A DNA stretch of 64,000 bases from an uncultured Candidatus Saccharibacteria bacterium (GTDB taxonomy: Bacteria; Patescibacteriota; Andersenbacteria; UBA10190): NCBI GenBank assembly GCA_964371255.1, contig CAYJKV010000002.1, positions 130,553 through 194,552 on the forward strand, in the 5' to 3' direction. The first letter of the stretch is position 1; every line of letters starts with the position of its first letter. Positions 1-64,000 of this stretch are shown here, piece after piece. A program made the translations under genes and the position numbers. Below the pieces are notes generated by a model. That model was given only the letters and a program-made list of their open reading frames with translations, did not search any database and was not told where the DNA came from.

Positions 1-771
1 GACTTGCCGCCAGCTGTCTATCAGTAATCCCACCCCCTTATAATATTCTACCGTCCCCACGTACAGGACGTTTCCGGCATATCCGTCGTTGACAGTTTTT
101 GTTATATAGTCATCCGCGATCGGATTAAAAATTATCTGAGTCGGCTTTGTACTGGCACCCCTTTGTTGACGAATGATTGTCGATTGCGCCATTGAAATAA
201 ATACTTCACCGTCTAAGTCATCAAACATACGCTGCCGATATTTAATATTCCCCCGGTATTGCCACCACCGGCCCCAACGTCTTAATCCTTGGGCTTCCGT
301 GATACGATGGGATAATTTTGCGTCCTGTATGCTATCCTTCGGCAATTCACCGTTGCCGGTTATGAAATTAGTGGATCCGCTGCAGGAAGCATAGTCCCTA
401 AGCGTCGCTATAATAGGTCCGCTGCCTCTATTCATTTTTCGCCACTCCATCAAGGCTAACACCGACCGGAAGTCATTCGCGTGCAAGATGTCTGCCCGTT
501 CTAATTCTGCTCGATGTCTATTTAACACTTTAGCGATTTGTCGGCTTTTCCTTCGTTCCCAGAGTGGTTTCTCTCGCAGCCCGGCCCTGACCATAATAAC
601 CTTCAGCCCATCAACCTCACGACTCCCATCTGCACCCTCGGTCATAACCACCACCTCATGCCCCGCCTCTTGCAGACCTTTGGCCAATAAGTACGTGGAT
701 ATTTCAGCCCCCCCCTTTGCCTCCGGCGGGAAATAAGCGGTCACTAACACCACTTTTATTCTATTGGTCAT
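1..771 (-). CDS. Glycosyltransferase, GT-B/GT4-like. N-terminal part only; the 3' end lies beyond the window start.
   Basis: My own translation of the minus strand from ATG (rc of 769-771) gives MTNRIKVVLVTAYFPPEAKGGAEISTYLLAKGLQEAGHEVVVMT..., a typical GT4 N-terminal Rossmann domain. The start forms an ATGA overlap with the stop of the downstream GT4 gene. It is absent from the ORF track because there is no in-window stop. Confidence 0.55.
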   Translation of the reverse strand, partial: MTNRIKVVLVTAYFPPEAKGGAEISTYLLAKGLQEAGHEVVVMTEGADGSREVDGLKVIMVRAGLREKPLWERRKSRQIAKVLNRHRAELERADILHANDFRSVLALMEWRKMNRGSGPIIATLRDYASCSGSTNFITGNGELPKDSIQDAKLSHRITEAQGLRRWGRWWQYRGNIKYRQRMFDDLDGEVFISMAQSTIIRQQRGASTKPTQIIFNPIADDYITKTVNDGYAGNVLYVGTVEYYKGVGLLIDSWRQV

Positions 772-1925
772 AAGACTTTTTTATATACGTTAAGAACAGC
801 CTGCGCCGATTCTTCCCAGCTGAATTTTTTAACTTGTTTAAGTCCCCGAGCTATTACTTCATTTCTTAGCTGCTTATTATTTAGCATGTCTTTAACTCTC
901 TTGGCCATCCCAACAGTATCTCCCGCCTCAACCAAAATGGCTCCATCACCTGCAATCTCGGGTGTGGCCGAAGCGTCCACAGCCACAATGGGCAACCCAG
1001 CCGCCATCGCTTGCACTAATGGCAGCCCAAACCCCTCGTTGATGGAAGGAAACAACAAGACATCGCTCATATTGTAAATTTCATTCAACTCGTCGTTGCT
1101 AATGTCCGCCACAAACTTTACGTTATTTCTTAATCCCAGCTGGTCAATCTGCTTGAGCGCTTTCTCCCGCTCCGGTAAAATTCCCGCCCCGCCCACCTTC
1201 ATCAGCACCGCCTGCTCGCCCTGCTTGATTAGTGTATGTAATACCTCAATTGCTTCATTCAGCTTTTTACGCGGATGGTCAGAACCGACAAATAATAAAA
1301 CATTAGTCTCGTTATCGATACCCCACCTCTTCTTCAAAGCCTGGTAGCCAATAGTCTGATGATACTTAGGTATCGACTGCCATTCTTCCCCCACCCCGTT
1401 ATAAATTACGGTAATTTTTTCCTCCGGTATGTGATAATGGTCTTTTATCTGCTGCGCTGTATACATTGAGACGGCGATAATATGGGAGGCTACATTCAAT
1501 CCGCTAAGTAAGTATTGGTTCAGGTATCTAGCCAGTGGCTGCTGCGGCGAGGTGACCTCAATAATATCATGCACGGTAAGCACGGTTGGTTTAGCCGCTC
1601 GATTGGCCAGAAAACTTAAAGACTGGTTGGTGATATCCCATAGGTCATAATCTCTTCGGTCCGTTTTAGCGGTATATTTTTTCCATCGTCTGGCTAATCT
1701 CACCCAGTTAATCGATTTGCTTTTCCTCCATTTCCCTCTCGTGCTCACCCAGTCGACCGGCCGCCCCTCTTTGCTCAGCAGTCCTCGTGTCCCATCGAAA
1801 TTGAACTCGTATATCTTAATATCTGCCCTGTGCCTCAACTGCTGTTGGATCTTAAGCGCTCTCAGTCCAACTCCCGACCGATCCGTGCTGTTTGTGAGGT
1901 AGGCAATTCTCATATCATCAGCCAT
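768..1925 (-). CDS. Glycosyltransferase family 4 (GT-B)
   Basis: C-terminal EGFGLPLVQAMAAGLPIVAVDASATPEIAGDGAILVE motif (E-x7-E). 385 aa. Confidence 0.8.
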   Translation of the reverse strand: MADDMRIAYLTNSTDRSGVGLRALKIQQQLRHRADIKIYEFNFDGTRGLLSKEGRPVDWVSTRGKWRKSKSINWVRLARRWKKYTAKTDRRDYDLWDITNQSLSFLANRAAKPTVLTVHDIIEVTSPQQPLARYLNQYLLSGLNVASHIIAVSMYTAQQIKDHYHIPEEKITVIYNGVGEEWQSIPKYHQTIGYQALKKRWGIDNETNVLLFVGSDHPRKKLNEAIEVLHTLIKQGEQAVLMKVGGAGILPEREKALKQIDQLGLRNNVKFVADISNDELNEIYNMSDVLLFPSINEGFGLPLVQAMAAGLPIVAVDASATPEIAGDGAILVEAGDTVGMAKRVKDMLNNKQLRNEVIARGLKQVKKFSWEESAQAVLNVYKKVL

Positions 1926-3033
1926 TTACCATCTTATAGATCTCCATTGTTTTATTAGCGACCATCTCCCAACTATTCGTTGTCGCCTGCTTCTTTCCGC
2001 GCTCCTGCATTACCGCCTGCTTTGACTTATCCTGCAATACCATTAGCATCCTCTGACCGAAATTTTCCACAAAAGCTTCGTCGTTTAGTCTTTTGTATAT
2101 ATTATCAGTGCTAAAGTTAACAATCTCCCCTGCTTCACCAACCACTTCCGGCAAAGATCCGCCATTGCTCACCACCACCGGCACCCCGTACGCCATTGCT
2201 TCTTGCGGCGGGAAGCCCCAACCCTCATACACCGAAGGCCAGACAAACAAATCAGCTTGTCCATATAACTGCTTAAGTTCCTCCTCCGAGACAAATCCCC
2301 GCCACTCAACCCGATCCTCCAATCCTAACGATCGACTTAATGCCAGATATTCCTGCCCGCCGTGGTATGGCTTGCCTGCCACCACTAACCGATGCGGTAT
2401 TTGCGCGCTAATTTTCGCAAATGACTTTAGCAAACCGCCGATATTTTTTCTCGGTTCAATCGTTCCGACAAATAATATGTACGGCCGCATGCTTGGCGTC
2501 TTCATCCCGTCGTAATCTAGTAATTTATCTTCAACACTAAGCCTGGTCACGGTAACCTTTGCCGGTTCAACCTTCAATTTCTCGCATATATCCTTCTTAC
2601 TTGCTTCAGAAATTGTCATAATGTGGTCGCTGTTTAGAGCTGCCCTCTTTAACGCCATCGGCCAATACCATCGTCTGGTCCATTTTTGCCCCTGCGGTAG
2701 TAATAAAGGAATCACGTCATAGATTGTCACTACTGTTGGCCGCCGTTTTCTTCTGGGCACATCCGCTTTAGTGTAGTGCACCACGTCAATGTTTAACGAT
2801 TGCAGCTTTTTCTCTAGTTGGTAATTCAACCAATAACCCAGTCCAATATCACCATACCGTTTCACCATCACGGTCTGTCGAAGTGGCCTACCCAACCTGA
2901 TCGGTGCGTCCACCACTGTGTAGCAAGTTAGTTGGTCACTTGTTCCCGGTAAATTAGTCAGCAAGTTCTTAACGTATCTATTTACGCCGCCCCCTTGATT
3001 CGTTAAAGCCCTGGCTTCAATCGCTACCTTCAT
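1918..3033 (-). CDS. Glycosyltransferase family 4 (GT-B)
   Basis: [37 protein letters not shown] motif. 8-nt overlap with the downstream gene. Confidence 0.8.
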
Positions 3034-4229
3034 AGTGCCGGATTTTCATTATGTTTATTTTCCCCGAGGCAACTCCTCAAAACGTCTTCATATCGCTGTC
3101 CCACCTTTGGCCAATAGAAATCCTTAACACTGATTTTGTTTGCCTCACCCATCCTCTTCGCTAGAGTGTCATCGGCCAATATTCGGTTCATCGCCTGTGC
3201 TAACGCCCGGTGGCTTTTTGGTTCCACCAATAAGGCGTTCTGCTCCTGCACTAAGAAATCTGTCTGGCCGCCTTCCCAAGTACCAATAATTGGTAAACCT
3301 GCTTCCATCGCCTCCAAAAATACGATGCCGAACCCCTCGTGTTCGCTGGCCGAGATAAAGCAGTCCGCCTGTGCTAAAATGTTCATCTTCTCTTCTTCCC
3401 CCACATAACCCAAGAAATGCACACGATCAATTATGCGCAAATCATCAGCCTGTTTTTTTAGGCTTTCAAGTAAGGGTCCTTCACCAATAATAGCCAGGTG
3501 AGCCTCTGCGGTTTTCGCTAGCGCTGTTAGTAAACAGCTGTATCCTTTACGGGGTATTAAACGCCCCACCGATACCATTAACTTTACTCCGTCCGGTAAG
3601 CTTAGCTGTTGACGCGATTGCTGATTATTACATGAGCCTTCTTTGATGCCCAAGTTAATCACCACAATTGGTCTGGTTACCTTATGAATATCAACTGCTC
3701 TCCTTTTAGTGTCATTCGAAATAGCTGTACATACCACGGCTCGGTTGGAAATAAATTTTACTAATTTCCTCAGCCACCAGTGCCGATGCGGAGAAACACC
3801 CTTGGTGGGATCAAACAGATCGCCACCAATAAAGCTCAAAACCATTGGCACCTGCCTGCGTCTCGCTATCAACATAGCTGGAATTCCTGAGGGTATAACA
3901 AATTGTGCGTTAATGACATCAATCTCTGCCTCTTTTGCTATTTTTCTACCATGCCACCAGGCACTCGGTATATACGTCGCCATGGACAGCAGCGACGCAA
4001 CTGCCAGACTTTTTCGTCCCCAAACCGGTACGCGATGCACATGCACTCCCCGTACTATATGCGTGTTGCTGTCGGCGTTGGTGGAGCGCTCCAGGAATCG
4101 TCTGCTGGGCCGGCTGGTAATAACATGCACAGTGTGGTGCTTAGCTAACTCTTCTGCGATAAATTTCGTAGCAATTCCGCCGCCTCCTCCCAAAGGTGGA
4201 TACTCAAAATTGAAAATCAATATTTTCAT
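3030..4229 (-). CDS. Glycosyltransferase family 4 (GT-B)
   Basis: EHEGFGIVFLEAMEAGLPIIGTWEGGQTDFLV motif. N-terminal FEYPPLGGGGGIATKF glycine-rich motif. 4-nt overlaps on both sides. Confidence 0.8.
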   Translation of the reverse strand: MKILIFNFEYPPLGGGGGIATKFIAEELAKHHTVHVITSRPSRRFLERSTNADSNTHIVRGVHVHRVPVWGRKSLAVASLLSMATYIPSAWWHGRKIAKEAEIDVINAQFVIPSGIPAMLIARRRQVPMVLSFIGGDLFDPTKGVSPHRHWWLRKLVKFISNRAVVCTAISNDTKRRAVDIHKVTRPIVVINLGIKEGSCNNQQSRQQLSLPDGVKLMVSVGRLIPRKGYSCLLTALAKTAEAHLAIIGEGPLLESLKKQADDLRIIDRVHFLGYVGEEEKMNILAQADCFISASEHEGFGIVFLEAMEAGLPIIGTWEGGQTDFLVQEQNALLVEPKSHRALAQAMNRILADDTLAKRMGEANKISVKDFYWPKVGQRYEDVLRSCLGENKHNENPAL

Positions 4230-6376
4230 AGTTCATTAAATACTTGCATGACTGGCTGTTTTAGGATGACTGACTCCTCGGCGCTATTTCTTATGATTAA
4301 CCTGCTTTTACCCGGTAGCGCTACTGTTTCGATCGTTTGTGTTTGCCGCTCTTCATCCCATTTAATTTCTACCTGCGTCCCCTCAATCGTTAGCTGGTTT
4401 TTCACCGCCCTGTTCAGCTCCCAGCTTATCAGGATACGTTTTGGCCCCTGATTATTATTATAGATCGTTAGAGTCGCCTCCTCCTTGATGCCGGCAATAA
4501 TTTTTCCCGTCTCTGGCTCTCGCCCGACTTCTCCCCAAGCATCATCACGGGCAATAAACACACCGTCCCCAGCTGGTAATTGACTGCTGTCGTACAGCCA
4601 CACATCATCAATCTCTTCGCGCCGCAATTTGCACGTCTTTTCCATAAAATCAATTGTTGCCTCCAGTTGCCTGTCCGATAACGAGTCCGGATGCACAACC
4701 ACCTGTCCAATATCTAAAGCGTCAACTACGTCGCCCATGGTTTCCACCATATCTTGCTCCAAAAATTCAGTCCGGTGCTCCAGTAGATGGTTCGTTCTTA
4801 AATACAATATCTGCCTCAGCGCTGGCATCGACTGAATTTCCCGATACGCCTGCGCCCCTTGTGCCCTTTCTAAAGCAATATTATTAAGCACGGTTTTGCC
4901 ATGAACTAAGCTGCCGAACAAGGCTCGTGACGCTATTGTATAGTTGGTCGCCGCCGGTAGTTCGATAACAGCTGTTCCTGGTTGATCTTTAATAACTGCA
5001 TAAGCTCTGGGGGTTTGCGCTGCCATCATCGGCACCGGCAGGAAAAGGAACTCCAGAATGATCAGCCCGGCGATAGCCCCGGCACTGCCCAGGCGCTTCA
5101 CCTGCGTTGCTAATACCCAACCAAACAGGACCATCCAGGAAAAATTAACCATGACACCCGCTCGGGCTATCGTCCTAATGGCGCGCAATACCGGCCAGCT
5201 ATCGACCATAGCCCAAGGCAACGGCACGCCTGTCACATACCCTAATAAATGTAATTTTGGGCCTAAACTAATAATGAAAAATATTAATGCGCTGCCAAGC
5301 CAGAATTTTAATTGCCGCCTCGGTATTTTTTGCCAGAAGAACGTCACCATTAAAATTGGCACATATCCCATAAATAGTGTTGTCTCTTGTGCGTTGCCAG
5401 TAAAATATCGTCCCCATACTTGACTAGCCGCCGATCCCCAAAGCGAATGGAAAGCGGCTGGTACTACGTAAGCGAACGGATCGGCTGAATAACGGATGAC
5501 CTGCTCCGGACCCAAGTCTAGCTGACTGTCATCTATTCCGGCTAATTGTATAGTTGGCCCCAACGATAGTCCGACGGTTATTAATACCAAGACGAAGGCC
5601 AATCCCAGAGACCATGTTCCTCTCTCCATCGCCACTACTGCCTTTAAGTTTGCTCGGAAATAAACCACAAACCAGGCGCAAAATATTATTAACCATAATA
5701 AGTAATGATGCTCTGTCCAGGCTTGGATTGTTATTAACCCTGCCACTATTAGCCCCTTTCCGATAGTCGGCTTATTCACCAATGACCAGGCCGTCAGAAC
5801 TATGAAAGGCAGCCATTGCAATTGCATGGCGCCAAAATGACCGCTGCCATGAGCCACGTGATAAGGCAGTAGCATATAGGCCATACCGGCCAGAAATCCC
5901 GGTGCTTCTCTGACCAACCTTTTGGCACCCGGCGTAATATCCGCCATATCTACACCAACATTTTCGCCATAAGTATTAATCAACCAGCCCATCAACAGAT
6001 ACATACCGTAACCAGCTAGTACGTAGCTCGCCAAATAAATTACATTGTATCCGGCAACCACCCCAAAGAGAGCCGCCACCGGCAGCCATGGCCACACCGA
6101 CAAATTCACCAATTCCGCTTTACCTAATCCAATAAATTCCGCTCGGATCGCAGTCGCGCTTCTCTCCCTCAAAGCTTGATTTACTAGCGAGGCCTTTTCT
6201 TCTAATCGCCATAAGCTTTGCCACGGATCTCCGCCGGTTCCGACAACATGGCTATTAATATTGCCCACTACGGGCCAGGTTAGTATAAGCGCCAAAACTA
6301 AATATAACCCAATTACTCCGGCATGTTTTAGAATGGTTTTTATCATGCTTTTATCTAGGGTAGCACATTGAATCAA
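4226..6376 (-). CDS. Large polytopic membrane protein (716 aa) with a C-terminal extracytoplasmic domain. Putative lipid-linked-sugar (GT-C type) transferase; family undetermined.
   Basis: About 12 hydrophobic segments in the N-terminal 450 aa, followed by a roughly 250-aa soluble tail. Divergent from a DPM1-like GT2 gene. Confidence 0.5.
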   Translation of the reverse strand: MIQCATLDKSMIKTILKHAGVIGLYLVLALILTWPVVGNINSHVVGTGGDPWQSLWRLEEKASLVNQALRERSATAIRAEFIGLGKAELVNLSVWPWLPVAALFGVVAGYNVIYLASYVLAGYGMYLLMGWLINTYGENVGVDMADITPGAKRLVREAPGFLAGMAYMLLPYHVAHGSGHFGAMQLQWLPFIVLTAWSLVNKPTIGKGLIVAGLITIQAWTEHHYLLWLIIFCAWFVVYFRANLKAVVAMERGTWSLGLAFVLVLITVGLSLGPTIQLAGIDDSQLDLGPEQVIRYSADPFAYVVPAAFHSLWGSAASQVWGRYFTGNAQETTLFMGYVPILMVTFFWQKIPRRQLKFWLGSALIFFIISLGPKLHLLGYVTGVPLPWAMVDSWPVLRAIRTIARAGVMVNFSWMVLFGWVLATQVKRLGSAGAIAGLIILEFLFLPVPMMAAQTPRAYAVIKDQPGTAVIELPAATNYTIASRALFGSLVHGKTVLNNIALERAQGAQAYREIQSMPALRQILYLRTNHLLEHRTEFLEQDMVETMGDVVDALDIGQVVVHPDSLSDRQLEATIDFMEKTCKLRREEIDDVWLYDSSQLPAGDGVFIARDDAWGEVGREPETGKIIAGIKEEATLTIYNNNQGPKRILISWELNRAVKNQLTIEGTQVEIKWDEERQTQTIETVALPGKSRLIIRNSAEESVILKQPVMQVFNEL

Positions 6377-6463
6377 TAATCTACCCTCCCGTCAAATTAA
6401 ATTATGAGCAATATCCACACCCGTGGCAATTGCTCGTCAGTGTGGCTAATGTAGTCTAATTAG

Positions 6464-27644: not shown

Positions 27645-27740
27645 ATCAATAGTTTATTGAACTTGTATAAAACCAGCAATCACCTTTATGGTATTGTCTG
27701 CTTGCCTATCCACTCTAAACCACTAAAATTAGCATATCTC

Positions 27741-31285: not shown

Positions 31286-31394
31286 AATCTAATAAATTAA
31301 TTCTGATACGCTATTAAATATTCAATTTGCATCGCCTGTTATTATGCATACTTCTATCTTCACTAAGCAAGTTGTCTTAGCCCCAATACTGAAA

Positions 31395-35400: not shown

Positions 35401-35409
35401 CAATTTAAT

Positions 35410-45882: not shown

Positions 45883-45898
45883 GGCTCCGCTCAGCTTG

Positions 45899-55567: not shown

Positions 55568-58024
55568 ATGATACCACGCTTCAATTTTGCTTATCTAACT
55601 GCCCTCTTTCTGGTCGTCGGTTCAGGCACTGCTGCTCTGCTACTAATGTTAGCACCCACTTTACCCGCATGGGGGATTCGTCATACCCCACATGACGAGC
55701 CCAGGTTCTTGACCTTAACTAGTCAGCAAACAATCGACCAGACTTTTCTTTTTGAATATCAGCGGCTGGATACTGTCGTGCTTTGGCTTGATCCCGACTC
55801 GCTGGCAAATCCTCAGGGCCTCCTGGCTTTGACCGTCAAAACTAACACCGACAGTACGACCAGCTATCTCCCGGTCGCCAACATACCACCTGATGGTATA
55901 GCTGTTTTTTCTTTTCAACCGCCTGTGTCTGCACCAGTCAATCAATCAGCCACCATGCGTCTAACCTTGGCTGATACTGATCGATCTCTCCGCCTGAAAT
56001 ATCAGATTGATGCCTCCATCTACCCCGACGGCGACTTACATGCCACCTCTCATCCGAATCGGGTTGGCGATATCGCCTGGCAAAGCCGCTACCAGCGTCC
56101 TGCCCTCGTCTCGCCGCTTATTCATTGGTTATATGTTATCTTTCTGCCCTTAGCCGGAATTCTAGCAGCTAGTCTGCTGATATATATTTATCATTTGCCC
56201 ACAACCATTCCCTCGCTAACCTTCAGTCCATCCCCCGGCACAAAGACTGCTCTTTTACACCGCCTTCCTCGCCCGCTGCCGCGTTTCATTTTAGTATTGT
56301 TGCCTGCCTTGCTGACTGTTTTTGTCTTTCTTTTTTATTCTTCATCTCTCATCCTCCCCGGTACCTGGATTGGCACCGCCGACTTCAGTAAAGAGTTAAG
56401 CTATGTTACCTCTTCGGCCTTGGCCCTTCGCGCCGGTGCCTGGCCGGTCTGGACACATTTTACCTGCGGCGGTATGAGTTTATTGGGTAATCCGGAAGCC
56501 ACCACACTCAGTATCAGCACTCTCCTCGCCGCTCTAACCTCTCGTCCTGAGTTATCTTTATGGTTAACTCTGTCCATCGAAGCCACTTTAGCTTGTCTGG
56601 GTACATACCTATTAGCTAAAGCCTTACGTCTTTCTACACCAGCTAGCCTCTTAGCAGCTGCCATCGCTTCATTATCGGCTGTTTTTCCCTATAAAATCGT
56701 CGAGGGCATAGTCATGATCGGCGGTCCGCTGGCTTTCACTCCCTGGGCATTTCTGGGCTTATATCGAACCCTAAAATCAGCCTCCTCGTACTGGCTGGTC
56801 CTTTGTAGTCTAAGCTTAATAGCTATCTTTTGGCGCGGTGATGTCCATATTATTTTACTGGTTATTCTGATCATTACCCTCTGGTGCCTCGCCAGTTCAA
56901 TATTACAGCGTCGCCCATGGCCCCTCCTCGTTCTGCTCGCAATTCTGCTCATATTTTTCTTAGGTGCCAGTCTTAAAGTTCTGCCCTACCTGGAACAAAT
57001 TAATTTAATCAACAGCCAGGTTGATCCTCATAGCGCCCAGCTTACACAGCAAAAGCTATGGTCTGACATTTTTCTTTCCGTTCAGGCACGCACCAATAAA
57101 ATCCCGGTATTGCATGGGTTGCCCGAGCACTTTGGTTATTTTGGTGCTTACGTCGGATTATTGCCAATGCTCCTGGTGTTATTAAGTCTATTTTCTTCTA
57201 ATCCGTTTCGTTATTTTGGCTGGTTCTTTCTGCTTGTATCCTTATTGCTTGCTGATGGTTATTTGTATGAACATTGGCTTCGTTTCCTTGGTCCGCTTTC
57301 TTCCCTTTTGCGTATGCCTAGCCGCTTTCTGACCGTTTCAGTCCTTTTTGTTGCGTTACTAGCCGGCCTGGGCTGGGATGTTCTCCGGGCAAAGCTCCGT
57401 CGTTTTCAAATCCCACCACACCCATATTCTCCGCTTATCCTGGCACTATTAGTCGGCATATTAGCTTGGCCTCTTTATGACTTAACTCGAGCCAGTTATT
57501 CTATCTTACAGCGCGATCTATCAAACCGCAGCTCTACCATCCTGCCTCCGCCCGTCGTTCCCACCCTGACCGCACATTTGAATAGCTCCCCGGCTGATCA
57601 TAAACACCCTTCTATCCTCTTACAATCAGGCTACTTATTGCCTCATATTTGTGGCGATCAAAACAATCCGCCCGAATTTTTGTCGCGCATATCAGACACG
57701 GCTTCGCTGGCTGATTATCCCGCCACCCTGGAACCAAATCAAATCACCCTCTATAATCTCCCCGCTCTATCATCTATCTATATCAAAACTCGCTTTGTTT
57801 CCTCATGGCAGCCATCGGCTGGCATAGTTCTGGCCGCTCCCGATGAATCCCTCCAGTTAATTACCCCCCCTCAACCAATCTCTTCAATTCGATTACAATA
57901 TCATTCAGCGACTATCCGTTCCCAACAAGTTTTGCTGCTTACATTTATCACAATTATTCTAGTTATGTTCGTTCGCCCGGTTTACAAAATTGCTCTAACC
58001 GCCTTACACTGGCGCCATGCTTAA
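55568..58024 (+). CDS. YfhO-like polytopic membrane protein (818 aa) with an N-terminal extracytoplasmic domain
   Basis: About 230-aa N-terminal domain, then RAGAWPVWTHFTCGGMSLLGNPEATTLSISTLL, which matches the YfhO consensus. Confidence 0.5.
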   Translation: MIPRFNFAYLTALFLVVGSGTAALLLMLAPTLPAWGIRHTPHDEPRFLTLTSQQTIDQTFLFEYQRLDTVVLWLDPDSLANPQGLLALTVKTNTDSTTSYLPVANIPPDGIAVFSFQPPVSAPVNQSATMRLTLADTDRSLRLKYQIDASIYPDGDLHATSHPNRVGDIAWQSRYQRPALVSPLIHWLYVIFLPLAGILAASLLIYIYHLPTTIPSLTFSPSPGTKTALLHRLPRPLPRFILVLLPALLTVFVFLFYSSSLILPGTWIGTADFSKELSYVTSSALALRAGAWPVWTHFTCGGMSLLGNPEATTLSISTLLAALTSRPELSLWLTLSIEATLACLGTYLLAKALRLSTPASLLAAAIASLSAVFPYKIVEGIVMIGGPLAFTPWAFLGLYRTLKSASSYWLVLCSLSLIAIFWRGDVHIILLVILIITLWCLASSILQRRPWPLLVLLAILLIFFLGASLKVLPYLEQINLINSQVDPHSAQLTQQKLWSDIFLSVQARTNKIPVLHGLPEHFGYFGAYVGLLPMLLVLLSLFSSNPFRYFGWFFLLVSLLLADGYLYEHWLRFLGPLSSLLRMPSRFLTVSVLFVALLAGLGWDVLRAKLRRFQIPPHPYSPLILALLVGILAWPLYDLTRASYSILQRDLSNRSSTILPPPVVPTLTAHLNSSPADHKHPSILLQSGYLLPHICGDQNNPPEFLSRISDTASLADYPATLEPNQITLYNLPALSSIYIKTRFVSSWQPSAGIVLAAPDESLQLITPPQPISSIRLQYHSATIRSQQVLLLTFITIILVMFVRPVYKIALTALHWRHA

Positions 58025-60797
58025 AAAAATTGCTTGGCCGGACCAAATTGCTATTGCAGCGCTAGCCGTCGCCTGGGTGGCTTTCTTTAGTCGAACCCTT
58101 TTTAATCAGCTGGTGTATTTTCTGGATGATTTGAAGATTATTTATTACCCCTTGGAATCGGTCTATGCCACCATGCAGCAAGCTAACCAGCTTCCCCTTT
58201 GGAGCCGCTTTTTTGGATTTGGACAGCCTTTGCTGGCTTGGGGCCAATTAGGTTTTTTTAATCCGCTTCATTTAACATTACGCTCTTTCTCTCTCCACCC
58301 CATCACTCTGCTGCAGGTTTCCATCTTGATGTATTTCGCGCTCGGTTCACTTGGTATGTTCATCTTTCTTCGCCGACTCAAAATATCTGCCGTCGCTGCC
58401 TTAGCCGGTGCCTTCGTCTTTACTTACGGCGGTTTCCACGTCGGTCATCTTAATCATGTCAATTTTTATACCGCGACCATGCTGTTGCCTTGGTTGCTAT
58501 CTTCACTCGACTGGTTCTCTACCCGACGGCACTTGCCATCATTCCTACTCACTGCCCTTTTATCTGCCACTATTGCGCTCAGTGGTCAGCCTCAGATCGT
58601 CCTCTACACGTTTGTCTTGGCAGCGATTTGGTTTGCCATCTTATTAATACGATCAGCGCATCGCTTCAAACTTTTCTGTCTGACGTCGCTGCTGGGTCTT
58701 TTGTCATTAACCCTCGCTGCTCCTGCCATTCTGCCCTTAGCAGAATTCCTGCCTGTCACCGAGCGTGCTTACGGACTTGGCCGAGCTGAAATTCTTGAAT
58801 TTAGTTACCCCCCCAGCCATGCCATCACTCTGCTGTTCCCCTATTTCTTTGGCGACCATCACTATTACTGGGGAGCCAAAAACTTCCAAGAATTAGCTGC
58901 CTACACCGGGATCCTGCCTCTCCTGCTGATTGGCCTGTCTTTGTTTTCTCGTCGGCGCACTTTGCAGCTGTTTGGGCTGACCGTTACTATTCTGGGCCTG
59001 CTGTTCGCTCTCGGTCAATATTCGCCCTTATTTTTGTGGCTGGTGGACCATGGCCTGATTAAATCCCTTTCTATACCCGGCCGTTTTACTTTCTTTTTCA
59101 TTGTGGGAGTCTCTATCCTGTCCGCCTTGGGTTTAGATACCGTCCGTCACTTAGCCTTCCGGCAAAAATCGCTCGCTTTTCTGCTTTGTCTCGCTCTTGT
59201 TTGGCTCCTCTTCACGCCCGTTATCAATCTGCTTTACCACAACCAAAGCCTCTATCAACACTGGCTGTCATTCTTGAGTTATACCCACTCTGAACCGTAT
59301 TTAATCGCTCTCGGTATATTATTGTTCTTAGGACTGTGCTTGCTCCCCAACCGTTATTTACGTTTCCATTACGCCTGGCTTGTCTCGAGCTGTATTGCGG
59401 TTACTCTCATTATCTACGGATGGAATTATAATCCACTCACGCCATCGACGACTGCTTATCAATCCTCACCATTTTTTGACGAGCTTCAGTCCTACTTCCA
59501 ATCCCACAATACACCCCCTCGAATTTATCACGTCGAACACCCTTCAATTGCTGCTCGGCGGCGCACCGAGCCTATCACCCCCCTCTTTACGGTCATTCAG
59601 CCAATTACGACTTCCGGCACCTCCCTGTCTTGTTTTACCATGCCTTATCAATTAAGTTCTGACCGTTCGTCCGGCTCCGTGGTCGACATCTCACTGACCG
59701 CCTCACCCACTGGCGACCCGCTGTCTTCAATTACGATCGACCCGGCTTCACTCAATGGCACTCTCTTCAATATATGTTTTAACCCTGTCCCCACAAAGGT
59801 TGGAGACCGGCTCTGGTTACGCTTTAGCAGTCAAGCTGACAGCGGGTTTCGTTTGATTTACCAGCCGGCCAGTTTCGCTGATCAGGCCGCTTATCTATTG
59901 CGCGTCACAAACCCCACCGCCGCTGAACTGCAAAGATCTATCAAGCCAATAACTATCGTGGTTTATGCCCCTGACGATCTATCCTCTGATTTATCAGCCA
60001 GGCGGCTTGATCGTCACATCAATGCGACTGCGTTTGCCAGTTCCGCTAATTGGATTGGTGCCTTGTCTGTTAAGACATATCGAAGTTTTGTCGCTTCCCT
60101 GCTGGATGATGACATTGATCCCATACATAACGATAGCGTGTCAGTCATCAATGACCGCCGAGCGATCATTAACTTAGCGGGCATTACTCACCTGGTGGAA
60201 ACAGCCGTTATTAATACTGACTATAGCTATATCACTGCTGCTGGCTTCAAGTTGGTCTCCTCCGATTCCATTCAAAACAACGTCCTTCGTCTTCATCAAA
60301 ATCAACTTGTTCTCCCCAAAGCCTGGTTAGTCAAACAGGCCGTGTTTTCTCCGGTTGACGACGAGACCGTCAGCGCTATTCGACAGCGTAATGACTCCGT
60401 TCGGGAATTAGTCTATATTAACGGACCAACTCCTCCGGACGTCTTATCCTCAATGGATCCAACTGCCTTAGTCAGTCAGGTCTCCGTCACGCGTTATGAC
60501 GATACGATTATTGATTTGCAGGTTGAAACCAACCAGTCCGCCTGGCTCGTCTTTAACGATACATCGACCCCGGCCTGGCATACCTATATCGATGACCAGC
60601 CCGCGCCTTACTACACGGCTTTTTCATTATTCAAAGCGGCCCAAGTGCCGGCTGGCCAGCATACCGTGTCTTTCCGCTATGAATCACGCCTGACCAACCT
60701 ATCCATCCATCTCGCTGCAGTTGGCCTGCTCATAGTTATCATTCTATTCGCATTTCAGGCTACCGGCGGGTTTAACCGTCCCGGTGCTGCTGTCTAA
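58017..60797 (+). CDS. YfhO-family membrane protein (926 aa) with a long C-terminal extracytoplasmic domain
   Basis: N-terminal LFNQLVYFLDDLKIIYYPLESVY...QLPLWSRFFGFGQPLLAWGQLGFFNPLHL is a canonical YfhO N-terminus. Confidence 0.65.
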   Translation: MLKKIAWPDQIAIAALAVAWVAFFSRTLFNQLVYFLDDLKIIYYPLESVYATMQQANQLPLWSRFFGFGQPLLAWGQLGFFNPLHLTLRSFSLHPITLLQVSILMYFALGSLGMFIFLRRLKISAVAALAGAFVFTYGGFHVGHLNHVNFYTATMLLPWLLSSLDWFSTRRHLPSFLLTALLSATIALSGQPQIVLYTFVLAAIWFAILLIRSAHRFKLFCLTSLLGLLSLTLAAPAILPLAEFLPVTERAYGLGRAEILEFSYPPSHAITLLFPYFFGDHHYYWGAKNFQELAAYTGILPLLLIGLSLFSRRRTLQLFGLTVTILGLLFALGQYSPLFLWLVDHGLIKSLSIPGRFTFFFIVGVSILSALGLDTVRHLAFRQKSLAFLLCLALVWLLFTPVINLLYHNQSLYQHWLSFLSYTHSEPYLIALGILLFLGLCLLPNRYLRFHYAWLVSSCIAVTLIIYGWNYNPLTPSTTAYQSSPFFDELQSYFQSHNTPPRIYHVEHPSIAARRRTEPITPLFTVIQPITTSGTSLSCFTMPYQLSSDRSSGSVVDISLTASPTGDPLSSITIDPASLNGTLFNICFNPVPTKVGDRLWLRFSSQADSGFRLIYQPASFADQAAYLLRVTNPTAAELQRSIKPITIVVYAPDDLSSDLSARRLDRHINATAFASSANWIGALSVKTYRSFVASLLDDDIDPIHNDSVSVINDRRAIINLAGITHLVETAVINTDYSYITAAGFKLVSSDSIQNNVLRLHQNQLVLPKAWLVKQAVFSPVDDETVSAIRQRNDSVRELVYINGPTPPDVLSSMDPTALVSQVSVTRYDDTIIDLQVETNQSAWLVFNDTSTPAWHTYIDDQPAPYYTAFSLFKAAQVPAGQHTVSFRYESRLTNLSIHLAAVGLLIVIILFAFQATGGFNRPGAAV

Positions 60798-60834
60798 TTT
60801 GCGATAAAAGACGATTAGTCACCGGTCTAACCAT

Positions 60835-62790
60835 TTAACGCTCGGGATTTTTCAAAGCGGCCATCTGGTCTTTTTTTAATTTCACTAAATTACTTCTGGC
60901 CGCAGCTAGCTGAGGGTCAAGCGCTAAAGCTTGCTGGAGCGCTGTTTCCGCGTTCTGCCAATCGCCTGCCATCGCATACAGGGCCCCCAGTCGATTGAAC
61001 CACGTCGCATGCCAATTTTCTATTTCTACCGCTTCCGCTAGCGCGGCTATCGCCTCCTCATTTCGTTTATCAGCTAGCAGGGCATCAGCCAGGCTCGCCC
61101 AACAACTGGCGCAATTCGGCTTAAGCGTAATGCTCTGCCGGTAAGCATCTGCCGCTTTCTTATAATCCTGCCGCAGCAAGTATACGTTCCCTAAATTTGT
61201 GTAACCGCTGATCAGATCAGGCTTCAACTCAATCGCTCTTTGCAGCACGGTTGCTGCTTCAGAAGTACGTCTGGTTTTTCCTAGTAAAGCACCTAAATTT
61301 ATCATTACTTCGAAGTTGTCAGGGTGATAAGTTAAAGCTTGTCGGTAGACTTTCTCCGCTTCGCCTGGCCGTTGTTCTTCCTCGTATGCCAAACCTAGAT
61401 TATTTAATGGTCGGGCTTTTTGTGGCGATTTATTGACAGCTTCAGACCACAATGATAAGGCGCTGCCCCACGCCTCGTTTCTCCAATAAGTCATCCCCCC
61501 CAGAACTGCTACTAATAACGCGATTGCTAAGGCCGGTCTTGCTAACGCCTTGATGGACTGTCTTTTGTTTTTGGCATAATGGGCCAGCCACCAAGCTAAA
61601 CCGTCCGCCAATATTATTACCACTCCAATCATGGGCAAATATAGTCGATGTTCAAAAATATTGTCTTTAATCGGTATAAAACTTGACTCCACTGATAAGG
61701 TTAAAAAGAACCATATAATGCCGAACGTGCCAACGTAACGTTTCCGTCTAAACAACCACAAACCCACACCAACCAAACCAATAATAGGCAGTAGATAAAT
61801 AAACGATGAGGGCTCCCCAGCCTCTTGCCAAGGTATGTCATGATCAATATTCAAGCCCGCCGGCCAAACAATCAACTGCAAATATTTAGTCACCACCCGC
61901 CACTCTGTAACAAAGTATGTCCAGCGTGAAATTTCCTGATTTTCTGCCGCCACATTATTAATCCGGCTCAACGTAACTTTATCAAAAATATTTTGATTAT
62001 AAGTCTCAGGCGATACCTCAGCATCATGAATTATTAAGCCTCTTACCTCTAATAAATATGCTGGAATTATCAGAACTGTTAACACCCATGGTAAAATTTT
62101 CCACCACCGCTTCATCACCTTGCGCCAGGTATATGAAAAAAATAAATACTCAATCGTCACAATCGTCATTGGTAGCGTAATTGCAATTTCTTTAGAATGC
62201 ATCGCCAACACGCTGCTCATCATCGATAATCCCGCCCACCCCCAGACTGCTCGTTTACTGGTGCTCTCCCGATAAAGCCAATAAGTCACCACTGCCCCGA
62301 CATAAAACAAGGTCGTCAGTAAAACCATTCTTTGCACAATATAGTTAACGCTTTGGGTTTGGATGGGATGAACTAGAAAGAATAATCCCGCCGTGATTGC
62401 CGCCAACCAATGATTATCGATACTCATCCAGCGATTGTGCCATTGCTGTTGGCTATAAGCTCGACGCGCGACCAGATAAACCAGACTGATCACTAACCCA
62501 GTCGTCACTAGATGAAGCGTAATATTGACAGTATGATAACCTTCTACTGCTAATTGCCCCCAGACGTAATTAATATCCAGAGTAAAATAGGGGATCGCTC
62601 TCGTGCCCAAAAAGGCCGGGACCGACCACTTAACCCGGTGACGATCGTCATTTTGCACAATCGAGTGTATGTCATCCAAGACAAACGGCGCATGCCAGGT
62701 GTTACTGTACAAAATAAAACCGATCAAGATAATCAAAACGGCTAGGCTGGTCTTTTCCCGTATCCGCAGACGATCAACAAAAGAATACAT
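60835..62790 (-). CDS. TMTC-like protein: N-terminal polytopic PMT-like membrane domain plus C-terminal tetratricopeptide repeats
   Basis: About 400-aa membrane domain (FVLDDIHSIVQNDD...IFEHRLYLPMIG) followed by at least 6 TPR units (NLGLAYEEEQRPGEAEKVYRQAL...). Confidence 0.65.
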   Translation of the reverse strand: MYSFVDRLRIREKTSLAVLIILIGFILYSNTWHAPFVLDDIHSIVQNDDRHRVKWSVPAFLGTRAIPYFTLDINYVWGQLAVEGYHTVNITLHLVTTGLVISLVYLVARRAYSQQQWHNRWMSIDNHWLAAITAGLFFLVHPIQTQSVNYIVQRMVLLTTLFYVGAVVTYWLYRESTSKRAVWGWAGLSMMSSVLAMHSKEIAITLPMTIVTIEYLFFSYTWRKVMKRWWKILPWVLTVLIIPAYLLEVRGLIIHDAEVSPETYNQNIFDKVTLSRINNVAAENQEISRWTYFVTEWRVVTKYLQLIVWPAGLNIDHDIPWQEAGEPSSFIYLLPIIGLVGVGLWLFRRKRYVGTFGIIWFFLTLSVESSFIPIKDNIFEHRLYLPMIGVVIILADGLAWWLAHYAKNKRQSIKALARPALAIALLVAVLGGMTYWRNEAWGSALSLWSEAVNKSPQKARPLNNLGLAYEEEQRPGEAEKVYRQALTYHPDNFEVMINLGALLGKTRRTSEAATVLQRAIELKPDLISGYTNLGNVYLLRQDYKKAADAYRQSITLKPNCASCWASLADALLADKRNEEAIAALAEAVEIENWHATWFNRLGALYAMAGDWQNAETALQQALALDPQLAAARSNLVKLKKDQMAALKNPER

Positions 62791-62791
62791 A

Positions 62792-64000
62792 TTAAGGCCG
62801 TTCTAATTGAGTCATATATTTCCTCGCTTCTTCATGGTTCGGATTAATAGCCAGTATCGCCTGCCATATTTCCTCCGCTTTTTTATTATTACCTAACTTA
62901 ATAAACACTTTAGCCAGATTACTCATGACTGCCGTGTCGCCTTTCTCCAGCTGTAAATAAAAGATATAGGCCCTGGCCGCTGACTCATACTCACCCTGGT
63001 TAGCTAAAACATTGCCTAAATTACCATAGGCAGGCGCCAGTCGTGGATTTAGTTGTAACGCCTTCTCTAGCTCCGTTCTTGCCTCCGTCATACGATTTAC
63101 TGCTCCAAGCGCAGCGCCCAATTTGCTATGCCACAACGCTTCTCCGGGTACCATGTTGATAGCCTGCCGATACGCCTCAATAGCTTCTTCATACTTTTCT
63201 TGTTTCACTAACACATCCCCTAAATTTCTCCATACCCCGGCGTCTTTAGTATTAAGGGAAATTGATGTTCGGTAGGCTTCCTCCGCCGCCGCCAACTTAC
63301 CTTGCATCATCAAAACATTACCCAAATTATTATAGGCAGCATCATGATTCGGGTTGATAGCCAGCGCTTCTTGTACCTCCCCGATTGCCTCTTCGTACCT
63401 CCCCAGGACACCGTAAATTGAGCCTAAATTGTTATGAGCGGAAACACTCTTCGGATCAATCTCTAGTTCCCGTTTATATAACGCTTCCGCTTCTCCAAAC
63501 ATCCGACGATCTAAAAAGGCTTTGCCTAAATTGTTGTGTGGCCTGGCTTTATTAGGAGCTTTTTCCTTGGCGTCTGTCCACAATGTCACCTCGTCTTTCC
63601 ACACCTTGTTGCGTTCATAGCTCGCTACTGCTAAGCCAACAACCCCAACCAAACACAGACAAACTAGCCAGGTCTCCGTGATCCTGCTTCTTTTTACTTT
63701 CTTGTTCACCACCACCAATACCATCTGTCCTACATCGCCCACCAGCAATGCCGCCCCTATCATCGGCAAATACAATCTATGCTCAAATATTACGTCAATG
63801 ATCGGAAAGAAGCTGGATTCTGGTAATAAGGCGATATAAAAGAAAATAATACCCAAAGCCGGTATTTTTCGACCCTTAGACAACAATAAAATCGCTACGC
63901 CAATCAACATTCCGTGCAATATTAAAGACCAGACAGTAGCCCGATCATTCAATGTTAATGTTAGCGGGTAATCATGATCAATGTTTTGGCCGGTCGGCCA
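62792..64000 (-). CDS. TMTC-like (PMT-like membrane domain plus TPR) paralog; 5' end beyond the window
   Basis: IIDVIFEHRLYLPMIGAALLV plus at least 7 C-terminal TPRs. My translation upstream of 63952 continues in frame (WPTGQNIDHDYPLTL, matching WPAGLNIDHDIPW of the paralog). The gene is therefore truncated by the window edge. Confidence 0.6.
   Translation of the reverse strand, partial: WPTGQNIDHDYPLTLTLNDRATVWSLILHGMLIGVAILLLSKGRKIPALGIIFFYIALLPESSFFPIIDVIFEHRLYLPMIGAALLVGDVGQMVLVVVNKKVKRSRITETWLVCLCLVGVVGLAVASYERNKVWKDEVTLWTDAKEKAPNKARPHNNLGKAFLDRRMFGEAEALYKRELEIDPKSVSAHNNLGSIYGVLGRYEEAIGEVQEALAINPNHDAAYNNLGNVLMMQGKLAAAEEAYRTSISLNTKDAGVWRNLGDVLVKQEKYEEAIEAYRQAINMVPGEALWHSKLGAALGAVNRMTEARTELEKALQLNPRLAPAYGNLGNVLANQGEYESAARAYIFYLQLEKGDTAVMSNLAKVFIKLGNNKKAEEIWQAILAINPNHEEARKYMTQLERP

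Follow-up and report, generated by a model that had tools for sequence, protein, structure and literature searches.

A large gene cluster of an uncultured Andersenbacteria bacterium is centred on GT-C membrane glycosyltransferases

How might surface glycans be assembled by a gene cluster that is crowded with glycosylation enzymes and lacks the classical machinery for polymerising and exporting polysaccharides? We addressed this question for a 64-kb stretch of DNA, referred to here as the window (64,000 nucleotides; GenBank contig CAYJKV010000002.1, positions 130,553 to 194,552 of the forward strand), from an uncultured, groundwater-type bacterium with a tiny genome that belongs to the Andersenbacteria, within the Candidate Phyla Radiation (CPR). 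How CPR bacteria form and structure their cell envelope is unclear, and one Parcubacterium was reported to carry 20 glycosyltransferases genome-wide (PMC5220378). We listed the open reading frames (ORFs) of the window and scanned them for hydropathy. Coding sequence makes up 96% of the window, with 53 ORFs and, at each end, one cut gene; 31 of the 53 lie on the forward strand, and nearly all of the genes serve glycan synthesis. An earlier note, made from the sequence alone, had proposed a very large cluster centred on GT-C membrane transferases and fed by lipid-linked donors, rather than a Wzy, Wzz or ABC transporter system. This proposal survived all the tests that we ran.

We compared all window ORFs with Pfam (E ≤ 0.01 for 50 ORFs and E ≤ 0.1 for g51–g53) and examined ten large membrane proteins, the upper end of the eight to ten GT-C candidates anticipated by the note. 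The combined evidence from fold, Pfam, profile links or family motifs supports a GT-C assignment for all ten. Two of them, g13 and g19, exceed the gathering score of Pfam PMT_2 (PF13231; GT39/GT83-like) and thus bear out the proposed PMT_2-like class. By contrast with these, g4, g8, g9, g43 and g50 have no Pfam or NCBIfam match; at E ≤ 10 Pfam returned nothing for g8, g43 and g50, a Pfam scan of 45 members of the g4 family yielded no consistent family, and NCBIfam matched none of the polytopic window proteins. Homologues of g9 number 23 among 5.8 billion proteins, have no Pfam domain and, where named, come from Andersenbacteria metagenome-assembled genomes (MAGs). An AlphaFold (AF2) model of g9 built from these homologues reached a pLDDT of 88 and a pTM of 0.84, and in a Foldseek search of the PDB its best 16 matches were all GT-C enzymes (PglB at 3.7e-6, yeast and human STT3, DPY19 and ArnT), followed by noise. 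The g4 family, with 148 homologues, is nearly confined to Andersenbacteria; the AF2 model of g4 had a pLDDT of 90, its best 19 PDB matches were again all GT-C (PglB, STT3 and EmbA/B/C) before noise set in, and its C-terminal beta-sandwich resembles carbohydrate-binding modules (CBMs). The top GT-C matches of g4 and g9 carried Foldseek probabilities of 0.93–1.00, and the PglB/STT3 alignments span nearly the full length of both models. Sequence and profile comparisons extended the assignment: g8 is 34% identical to g9 (BLASTP, 1.5e-67) and is found in the g9-family alignment, and the orphan family of g43, with 12 sequences, aligned with the g9 family by hhalign (91%) over 340 columns that start at the invariant loop-1 Asp.

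The earlier note also named a YfhO-like class, which g50 and g51 would represent. The Pfam YfhO match (PF09586) of g51 covers the C-terminal part of the protein and falls just below the cut-off, and g50 has no such match; however, 4 of 40 g50-family members match YfhO, at up to 2e-13, and among 475 representative homologues of g50 some match YfhO, GT-C_AftD, PTPS_related, DUF6044 or DUF2079, all of which are GT-C families. With g51 taken out of the alignment, hhalign linked g51 to the g50 family at 99.4% and the g50 family to the g4 family at 99.0%; the g4 family in turn aligned with the PMT_2 group at 90.2%.

The two remaining proteins, g52 and g53, had been described as TMTC-like. TMTC O-mannosyltransferases are defined by the motifs DD in loop EL1, KET(Q)xxT in EL3 and ERxxY in EL5 (PMC7801869). 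Both window proteins consist of a polytopic domain followed by TPR repeats detected by Pfam, and carry PFVLDD after the first transmembrane (TM) helix, KE(I/T)AIT (KEIAIT or KETAIT) and EHRLY, a near match to ERxxY. Judged by this combination of motifs and architecture, they are probable TMTC-like proteins. The complete g53, which runs on into the right flank, is 39% identical to g52 over its full length, and six metagenome homologues of g52 gave no Pfam match save a faint GtrII at 0.0048. A role as ligase-like proteins of Wzy_C+TPR type was ruled out by the TMTC motif set, not by fold. Theirs is the weakest assignment of the ten, because profile libraries and PDB searches missed the polytopic domain.

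An Asp or Asp-Asp just after a TM helix recurs in all ten proteins except g50, whose core loop was not located behind the N-terminal extension: g13, g19, g51, g52 and g53 have DD, and the g9, g43 and g4 families have the invariant loop-1 acidic residues D173, D37 and D49, respectively. The WWDYG-type motif, searched as W[WYF]D[YFW][GN], occurred in 0 of 80 aligned members of the g9, g43 and g4 families, and Pfam STT3 matched none of g8, g9, g43 and g4. These four proteins would thus fall outside the STT3 family as far as their sequences tell. Three of the GT-C families are new: they lack a curated model, and their members come almost exclusively from one candidate phylum.

Next to these enzymes, the classical machinery is missing, as the earlier note had stated for the window. 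In Pfam, neither the 53 window ORFs nor the 18 flank genes (precomputed annotation; 9.2 kb to the left and 8.8 kb to the right of the window) included a phosphoglycosyltransferase (PGT) of the MraY/WecA type (PF00953) or the WbaP/PglC type (PF02397), a Wzy_C, Wzz, Poly_export or Wza/Wzc protein, or an ABC transporter (ABC_tran, ABC2_membrane; Wzm/Wzt, KpsMT, TagGH). The flanks were thus free of the very genes that the note had named as grounds for abandoning its proposal. No cryptic Wzy candidate is left, because all polytopic window proteins are GT-C enzymes, Wzx flippases or small (<240 aa). Individual candidates for the missing functions were rejected: g24 and g43, considered as Wzy polymerases or O-antigen ligases, are a Wzx paralogue and a relative of the GT-C protein g9, respectively, and g49, considered as a PglC-like PGT, has no family match.

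Where would the GT-C enzymes obtain their donors? The gene g5 encodes a family 2 glycosyltransferase (GT2; Pfam PF00535, 72.5 bits) with PDB matches to dolichol-phosphate mannose (Dol-P-Man) synthase (DPMS; 7e-6) and ArnC (1e-5), and is followed by g6, a DUF2304 protein (PF10066). In streptococci, the GT2 GacI makes GlcNAc-P-undecaprenol, and the DUF2304 protein GacJ binds GacI and greatly raises its activity; the Wzx-like GacK is the proposed flippase for this lipid, the GT-C GacL uses it to decorate the rhamnan, and PpgS/Rv3632 of M. tuberculosis behave like GacI/GacJ (bioRxiv 10.1101/180810). In gene order and family content, g5 and g6 appear to reproduce the GacI/GacJ-type arrangement, a GT2 and then a DUF2304 membrane protein beside a GT-C gene, and by analogy they would form a sugar-P-polyprenol. 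A second candidate synthase, g20, matches the P. furiosus Dol-P-Man synthase 5mlz over residues 4–229. The hydropathy scan found no TM segment in g20; enzymes of the Dol-P-Man synthase/ArnC type are anchored to the membrane through C-terminal helices or a partner subunit. The presence of a GacI/GacJ-like pair beside a g9-type GT-C gene and of the DPMS-like g20 therefore supports polyprenyl-phosphate-sugar routes alongside Wzx-flipped oligosaccharides. By analogy with the neighbouring GacI/GacJ-like and DPMS-like GT2 genes, the GT-C enzymes probably use lipid-phosphate-linked donors. The two Wzx flippases of the earlier note hold, because g41 scores above the cut-off of Pfam Polysacc_synt and g24 is its paralogue.

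The soluble enzymes were fewer than the note had counted. Fourteen Leloir-type glycosyltransferases are firm (g0–g3, g5, g7, g10–g12, g20, g25, g30, g31 and g38) and three further candidates are sub-threshold (g16, g23 and g35), so that the claimed total of more than 20 is reached solely when the GT-C enzymes are included. Six methyltransferases lie in the window (g17, g18, g22, g32, g33 and g40) and a seventh in the left flank, short of the eight or more expected; g37, tried as an FkbM-like seventh within the window, gave an hhalign value of 0.4%. The sugar pathways encoded are those for nonulosonic acid, with a NeuC/NeuB/NeuA-type set (g29, g28 and g27), for 3,6-dideoxyhexose and for 6-deoxy sugars. 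As a PglE-type aminotransferase of a pgl-like pathway, g36 was discarded, its best matches being the 3-dehydratases ColD and E1. The nonulosonic acid operon also contains the RGP/GT75-like g25 and the D-2-hydroxyacid dehydrogenase g26 (window 30167–32339), which could point to a nonulosonic acid with an unusual N-acyl group, such as glyceroyl or lactoyl, or else to a furanose sugar.

Both flanks carry on with glycosylation genes, so the cluster extends over at least 82 kb with both ends open, and the window is its central 64 kb. The left flank holds the rest of the cut GT4, a methyltransferase, two polysaccharide deacetylases, a GT9, a second GT4, a GT2, an ATP-grasp enzyme, a weak Glyphos_transf (TagF-like) match and a YfhO protein. 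The right flank holds the remainder of g53, the gene for a 684-aa protein paralogous to PMT_2 proteins, a pilin-like ORF and a PMT_2 protein, and further an acetyltransferase, a 487-aa weak PMT_2-like protein and an asparagine-synthase-like gene. Overall, about 30 glycosyltransferases are encoded in these 82 kb or more, 14 of them GT-C; the ten GT-C genes of the window occupy 18.9 kb, or 30% of its length.

The earlier note had called the locus an island, and this description did not hold. The G+C content is even along the 64 kb (0.43–0.50), the window contains no tRNA or other Rfam family, and no integrase or repeat boundary was found in it apart from one trivial tandem repeat. Its sequence is 100% identical to several independent ENA/Logan metagenome contigs and recurs, at 99.8–100% identity, in at least six separate assemblies. 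The comparison of gene order with related genomes, which the note had suggested, revealed conservation in Andersenbacteria MAGs. Among the species-representative genomes scanned, the sole relative was a Candidatus Andersenbacteria MAG (Parcubacteria group, CPR). In this MAG, Candidatus Andersenbacteria RIFCSPHIGHO2_02_FULL_46_16, g1–g17 are collinear at 56–96% amino-acid identity, and the same 186-kb contig also keeps the order of g51, g52, TPR_708 and u684, with g9 and g52 spaced 52.7 kb apart against 52.1 kb here. Several Andersenbacteria MAGs from other sites keep the gene order at 40–65% identity. Six genomes share a core in which three to four GT4 genes and g4 diverge from a GT2, DUF2304, (GT4), g9-type GT-C, GT1, GT2/GT1 and GT4 series; the GT2–DUF2304 pair is followed by a g9-family GT-C in all six. 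The g9-type gene is single in more distant Andersenbacteria (hhalign 100%, E 4e-81) and tandemly duplicated as g8 and g9 here and in the two closest relatives; the window was compared at 8735–12927 with L027 6894–8936, L028 and L029. The module g42–g41/g43–g44–g45–g47 is kept in a relative whose cluster then runs into housekeeping genes. Because gene order is kept in related MAGs, we regard the locus as a lineage-conserved supercluster, kept by vertical descent, and not a mobile island: it is a conserved core with lineage-specific expansions.

Some neighbours of the GT-C genes deserve mention in their own right. The Peptidase_M14-like gene g14 is translationally coupled to g13, and the pair is present in the relatives L009 and L010 and absent as a whole from L029. 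Directly 3′ of g43 sits g44, which at its own 3′ end shares 92 nt with the convergent g45; a small flippase or a subunit with an accessory function may be its product. In distant relatives, a 464-aa protein has a weak PMT_2 match together with a GtrA_DPMS_TM domain (L027 9–1403 and L028 1–1395) and could be a flippase–transferase fusion.

Taken together, we consider it probable that the locus is a supercluster for cell-envelope glycoconjugates, in which several lipid-linked routes converge on the outer face of the membrane and GT-C enzymes carry out the transfer. We infer several such routes because g5/g6 reproduce GacI/GacJ and g20 resembles Dol-P-Man synthase. By homology, cytoplasmic enzymes would make CMP-nonulosonic acid (g27–g29), a 3,6-dideoxyhexose (g36, g39/g48 and g21/g34), a 6-deoxy-HexNAc via g42 and 6-deoxyhexoses via g15 and g45–g47; the six methyltransferases are encoded as well. 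Single sugars would be loaded onto polyprenyl phosphate by g5 with g6 and by g20, as suggested by homology and adjacency. About 14–17 GT-B/GT-A enzymes may build oligosaccharides on a lipid carrier after initiation by a PGT that would be encoded elsewhere, and g24 and g41 would flip the lipid-linked glycans. The ten GT-C enzymes (14 with the flanks), assigned by fold or family, would then transfer sugars or glycans outside the cytoplasm. Here we can offer guesses: S-layer, pilin-like or other surface proteins might be the targets of the PMT_2-type and TMTC-like enzymes (g13, g19, g52, g53 and their copies in the flanks), and the g4/g8/g9 core with g5/g6, together with the YfhO-like g50/g51, might decorate or extend a wall- or membrane-anchored glycopolymer. 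The acceptors proposed by the earlier note (proteins, S-layer or wall polymers) are likewise putative.

Several points weigh against this reading. The Foldseek TM-scores of the GT-C matches were moderate (0.39–0.49). For g52 and g53, the GT-C status comes from motifs and architecture: their N-terminal domains have no DUF1736 or PMT match in Pfam at E ≤ 10, NCBIfam was silent for the g52-type domain, PDB sequence and profile searches with it returned noise, and the sole profile link, at 87%, dropped to 32% once g51 was removed from the target alignment. On the donor side, g5 is slightly closer to the soluble GpgS (2e-7) than to DPMS or ArnC, two candidate polyprenyl-phosphate-sugar synthases would have to serve 10–14 GT-C enzymes, and the window showed no flippase of the GtrA type. 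With no initiating PGT in the 82 kb, part of the Wzx-dependent branch is missing from the DNA examined. No acceptor gene was identified inside the window.

Comparison with known systems places the locus among several familiar schemes without matching any of them throughout. Like GacI/GacJ/GacK/GacL of Streptococcus pyogenes and PpgS/Rv3632, it has a short GT2 gene followed by one for a three-helix DUF2304 protein, next to a GT-C gene; with GacIJKL it also shares a Wzx-like protein in the cluster and the logic of a polyprenyl-monophosphate sugar that is made inside, flipped and used outside by a GT-C enzyme. However, the GT-C partners here, g4 and g8/g9, have no Pfam model and a fold most like PglB/STT3, neither a polyrhamnose backbone set nor a GacO-type initiator or ABC exporter lies nearby, and ten or more GT-C genes take the place of one. 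The CsbB/GtcA/YfhO and GtrA/GtrB/GtrC systems of teichoic acid and O-antigen modification share the scheme of a GT2 polyprenyl-phosphate-sugar synthase with an extracytoplasmic GT-C enzyme, and g50, g51 and one flank gene are YfhO-like; unlike in those systems, no GtrA/GtcA-family flippase was detected in the window, and the YfhO score is marginal for g51 and absent for g50. The Campylobacter pgl system of N-glycosylation offers the oligosaccharyltransferase PglB, the best structural match of g9 and g4, and has counterparts to the PglF-like dehydratase and flippase beside the g9-related g43, but WWDYG, Pfam STT3, a PglC-type PGT and a PglK-type ABC flippase are lacking here and the neighbouring DegT enzyme is ColD-like. 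Eukaryotic TMTC1–4 and PMT enzymes and bacterial TM+TPR homologues resemble g52/g53 in the polytopic domain followed by TPR repeats and in the DD, KE(T/I)xxT and ER..Y-like motifs, and PMT resembles g13 and g19 through PMT_2; they differ in that g52/g53 have no DUF1736 or PMT match, that ERxxY reads EHRLY, and that a bacterial donor would be a polyprenyl-phosphate sugar, not dolichol-P-mannose. Mycobacterial EmbA/B/C and AftA–D likewise constitute many GT-C enzymes fed by polyprenyl-phosphate sugars outside the membrane; g4 matches the Emb structures and ends in a carbohydrate-binding-like domain, and there are matches to GT-C_AftD among the homologues of g50. The mycobacterial GT-C genes for arabinogalactan and lipoarabinomannan are scattered over a 4.4-Mb genome, whereas 14 GT-C genes lie within 82 kb here, with no decaprenyl-phospho-arabinose pathway.

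Two more specific accounts are rivals to our reading. In one, which we regard as possible and hold tentatively, the locus serves general protein glycosylation: g8, g9, g43 and perhaps g4 would be CPR-specific oligosaccharyltransferases that transfer Wzx-flipped lipid-pyrophosphate oligosaccharides en bloc to surface proteins, S-layer proteins and pilins included, and O-linked monosaccharides would come from the PMT_2 and TMTC-like enzymes. The structural matches of g9 and g4 to PglB and eukaryotic STT3 fit this account, as does the head-to-head arrangement of g43 with a PglF-like dehydratase and a Wzx gene, kept in a relative. Eukaryotic PMT and TMTC enzymes are protein O-mannosyltransferases (PMC7801869), TPR domains suit protein recognition, and S-layers have been reported in the phylum (PMC13293708). 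In addition, a pilin-like 134-aa ORF lies among the right-flank GT-C genes, between the PMT_2 gene and the gene for its 684-aa paralogue (L005 5003–5407, ~3.4–3.8 kb past the window end); its N-terminal helix is similar to that of a type IV pilin (Geobacter PilA-N, E 0.0016) with a non-canonical leader (G-W-E-Y instead of G-F-T-L-I-E), and its product is a possible glycosylation acceptor. On the other hand, the GT-C class A enzymes all share this fold, ArnT and DPY19 score too, and the families of g9, g43 and g4 lack the WWDYG-type motif and a Pfam STT3 match. The g9-type gene always stands beside a GacI/GacJ-like pair, which would predict monosaccharide-phosphate donors rather than pyrophosphate oligosaccharides; g36 is ColD-like and not a PglE-type aminotransferase, and no PGT was found in the 82 kb. 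In the other account, also possible though open to real doubt, the GT-C enzymes would be polymerising or branching transferases, like Emb/Aft, GacL and YfhO, that assemble a teichoic-acid- or rhamnan-like polymer of the wall or membrane. Wzy and ABC exporters would then be unnecessary. The GacI/GacJ-like pair with its adjoining GT-C gene matches streptococcal and mycobacterial side-chain systems, g4 matches EmbA/B/C and bears the CBM-like beta-sandwich, homologues of g50 match GT-C_AftD and YfhO, and the left flank supplies the weak TagF-like match, the deacetylases, the ATP-grasp enzyme and the YfhO protein. Yet an LCP ligase, a TagO/WecA-type initiator and a TagGH-type ABC exporter were not seen in the 82 kb, and enzymes with TPR repeats or of the PMT_2 type more typically act on proteins.

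Two other explanations were weighed. The locus could be a conventional Wzx/Wzy O-antigen, exopolysaccharide or capsule locus whose PGT, polymerase, chain-length regulator and exporter lie just beyond the inspected flanks, with the GT-C enzymes as accessory decorators. It would be in keeping with the two Wzx proteins, with the large number of GT4 and GT2 enzymes and with sugar pathways that are typical of O-antigens; the inspected flank spans ~9 kb per side, and Pfam is often blind to Wzy proteins. We consider it improbable: all polytopic window proteins are accounted for with no Wzy candidate among them, both flanks carry on with GT-C and not export genes, the modules of relatives end in housekeeping genes without a PGT, Wzz or exporter, and CPR bacteria are not known to make lipopolysaccharide (PMC5220378). 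An artefact, either a chimeric assembly or an island acquired from a non-CPR donor, might be suspected from the extreme density of glycosylation genes in a sequence known from metagenome assemblies only. This is very improbable given the near-identical recovery in at least six assemblies, the uniform G+C content and GC skew, the lack of tRNA, integrase and repeat boundary, and the conserved order in MAGs from other sites.

Some further features of the sequence concern composition and variation. The GC skew is about −0.2 in each 2-kb bin, a strong and uniform strand asymmetry over window 1–64000. At third codon positions it amounts to −0.27 in forward-strand genes and +0.29, on their own strand, in reverse-strand genes, and in non-coding DNA to −0.29; being independent of the coding strand, the skew points to a replication- or mutation-linked bias. 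The forward strand is C-rich, and under the usual rule that the leading strand is the G-rich one, most genes would run head-on to replication. Other assemblies of the same population (L002, L006, L007 and L008) show ~100-nt breaks between collinear blocks, with some genes shorter or missing, for example, around window 3278–3520 and 54756–55006. A GT9 (heptosyltransferase-family) gene lies within the cluster in three genomes, and distant relatives have an HldE-like gene (CTP_transf_like+PfkB) at the cluster edge (L001 14122–15195, left flank; L027 19225–20274 and 1–28). This is a hint that the glycans contain heptose, although no lipopolysaccharide is expected from the lineage.

Table 1 Genes of the window, with coordinates, strand and the evidence for each description (AF2, AlphaFold model; SAM, S-adenosylmethionine; NDP, nucleoside diphosphate).
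Gene and description	Coordinates	Strand	Evidence
g0, N-terminal part of 415-aa GT4, cut by window start	1..771	-	full gene in left-flank L001: Glyco_transf_4/Glycos_transf_1
g1, GT4	768..1925	-	Pfam Glycos_transf_1 5.6e-34
g2, GT4	1918..3033	-	Pfam Glycos_transf_1 2.7e-32
g3, GT4	3030..4229	-	Pfam Glycos_transf_1 1.1e-41
g4, 716-aa GT-C fold, C-terminal beta-sandwich, loop-1 motif GGDPWQ	4226..6376	-	AF2, Foldseek, hhalign
g5, short soluble GT2, GacI/PpgS-like candidate polyprenyl-phosphate-sugar synthase	6464..7165	+	Pfam GT2 5e-20
g6, DUF2304 small 3-TM protein, GacJ/Rv3632-like putative g5 activator	7144..7518	+	Pfam DUF2304 1.1e-16, 61.5 bits
g7, GT4	7515..8750	+	Pfam 5.8e-29
g8, 651-aa GT-C, tandem paralogue of g9	8735..10690	+	BLASTP to g9
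g9, 746-aa GT-C, PglB/STT3-like fold	10687..12927	+	AF2, Foldseek
g10, GT1-type (GT-B) glycosyltransferase	12891..13859	+	Pfam Glyco_trans_1_4 1.9e-15
g11, GT2+GT1 bifunctional	13771..15804	+	Pfam GT2 3.2e-29, Glyco_trans_1_4 8e-8
g12, GT4	15801..16901	+	Pfam 6.2e-37
g13, PMT_2-type GT-C, QDDAP loop-1 motif	16898..18253	+	Pfam PMT_2 45.6 bits, cut-off 26.1
g14, Peptidase_M14-like	18250..19542	+	Pfam 2.9e-11
g15, RmlD-like NDP-sugar reductase	19589..20491	+	Pfam RmlD_sub_bind 1.6e-42
g16, possible GT-B, sub-threshold	20488..21627	+	Pfam Glyco_trans_1_2 22.5 bits, cut-off 25
g17, FkbM-type methyltransferase	21708..22484	+	Pfam Methyltransf_21 2.4e-17
g18, FkbM-type methyltransferase	22462..23415	+	Pfam 1.7e-20
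g19, PMT_2-type GT-C, g13 paralogue	23399..24832	+	Pfam PMT_2 30.6 bits, cut-off 26.1; 41% identity to g13
g20, GT2, Dol-P-Man synthase/ArnC-like	24716..25465	-	PDB 5mlz 7.6e-24, ArnC 1.4e-10
g21, NDP-sugar epimerase/reductase	25622..26578	-	Pfam Epimerase 1.1e-63
g22, SAM methyltransferase	26652..27644	-	Pfam Methyltransf_23 6e-13
g23, possible GT-B, weak	27657..28832	+	Pfam Glyco_trans_1_2 18.4 bits, under cut-off
g24, second Wzx-like (MOP) flippase	28867..30096	-	g41 paralogue: BLASTP 1.9e-26, hhalign 98.4%
g25, RGP (GT75)-like	30167..31285	-	Pfam RGP 3.3e-12
g26, D-2-hydroxyacid dehydrogenase	31395..32339	-	Pfam 1.3e-49
g27, CMP-sugar (NeuA-type) cytidylyltransferase	32336..33082	-	Pfam CTP_transf_3 2.5e-22
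g28, NeuB-type nonulosonic acid synthase	33092..34225	-	Pfam NeuB 2.1e-69; PDB NeuB 2.2e-40, PseI 3.2e-39
g29, hydrolysing UDP-HexNAc 2-epimerase (NeuC/LegG-type)	34243..35403	-	Pfam Epimerase_2 2e-63; PDB GNE 4.5e-60, LegG-type 1.7e-52
g30, Capsule_synth (KpsS/KpsC-like), candidate nonulosonic/keto-sugar transferase	35356..36948	+	Pfam 48.2 bits, cut-off 20; weak NCBIfam BFO_1060
g31, GT1/GT4	36945..37955	+	Pfam 3.3e-16; hhalign to GT4 set 99.2%
g32, SAM methyltransferase	37972..38712	+	Pfam Methyltransf_11 2e-12
g33, SAM methyltransferase	38717..39481	+	Pfam Methyltransf_25 5.6e-15
g34, NDP-sugar epimerase/reductase, g21 paralogue (57% identity)	39491..40474	+	Pfam 4.6e-64
g35, faint GT-B C-terminal similarity	40452..41495	+	hhalign to GT4 set 44.7%; Pfam E 0.08
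g36, DegT-family, nearest ColD/E1 3-dehydratases	41562..42764	+	Pfam 1.2e-59; PDB ColD 9.1e-57
g37, 247-aa soluble protein	42805..43548	+	no Pfam/NCBIfam match
g38, GT1-type, barely over cut-off	43662..44834	+	Pfam Glycos_transf_1 27.8 bits, cut-off 26.4
g39, NDP-hexose 4,6-dehydratase-like	44902..45882	+	Pfam GDP_Man_Dehyd 7.2e-53
g40, SAM methyltransferase	45899..46735	-	Pfam Methyltransf_12 30.9 bits
g41, Wzx (MOP) flippase	46732..48000	-	Pfam Polysacc_synt 34.9 bits, cut-off 28.2
g42, PglF/CapD-type UDP-GlcNAc 4,6-dehydratase, soluble	48111..49514	-	Pfam Polysacc_synt_2 1.6e-97; PDB PglF 7.4e-60
g43, 477-aa GT-C, short g8/g9 relative, loop-1 FPIGGDA	49583..51016	+	hhalign to g9 family
g44, small 3-4-TM membrane protein	50961..51392	+	37% identity to ORF in relative L011, 2e-24; no Pfam match
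g45, RmlC/FdtA-like NDP-ketosugar isomerase	51301..51744	-	Pfam dTDP_sugar_isom 2.8e-11
g46, NDP-sugar epimerase/reductase	51741..52814	-	Pfam 3.3e-41
g47, sugar-1-phosphate nucleotidyltransferase	52769..53554	-	Pfam NTP_transferase 4.8e-18
g48, NDP-hexose 4,6-dehydratase-like	53855..54838	+	Pfam GDP_Man_Dehyd 1.7e-57
g49, 237-aa bitopic membrane protein	54815..55528	-	no family match
g50, 818-aa YfhO/AftD-like GT-C, N-terminal extension	55568..58024	+	homologues' Pfam matches, hhalign
g51, 926-aa YfhO-like GT-C, FLDD loop-1 motif	58017..60797	+	Pfam YfhO 27.9 bits, cut-off 28.5
g52, TMTC-like: polytopic domain + C-terminal TPR	60835..62790	-	TPR Pfam matches, motifs
g53, C-terminal 386 aa of 708-aa TMTC-like g52 paralogue, cut by window end	62792..64000	-	full length in L005

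The enzyme classes described here are all familiar; the novelty lies in how many of these enzymes a CPR genome holds and how densely they are packed. The literature searched on glycosyltransferases or S-layers of CPR, Patescibacteria or Andersenbacteria offers general remarks, such as counts of “several” or “20” glycosyltransferases, and does not describe this cluster. The locus provides candidates for a GacI/GacJ-like donor synthase and three GT-C families without a Pfam model, and the TMTC-like g52 and g53 could serve as bacterial models of human O-mannosyltransferases. More speculatively, and in our estimate unlikely, the g8/g9/g43 family (23 + 12 members among 5.8 billion proteins, essentially all from Andersenbacteria), possibly with g4, might be an unrecognised oligosaccharyltransferase family with a PglB/STT3-like fold and no WWDYG motif, dedicated to general S-layer or pilin glycosylation in CPR bacteria. 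If so, the 82-kb cluster would supply the genes for the cell surface with which CPR bacteria attach to their hosts. Genomes in the phylum have a mean size of 0.92 Mb (PMC13293708), of which a cluster of at least 82 kb makes up about one tenth. That bacteria presumed to live in attachment to other cells devote so much DNA to a glycan coat suggests a central role of the coat in their biology.

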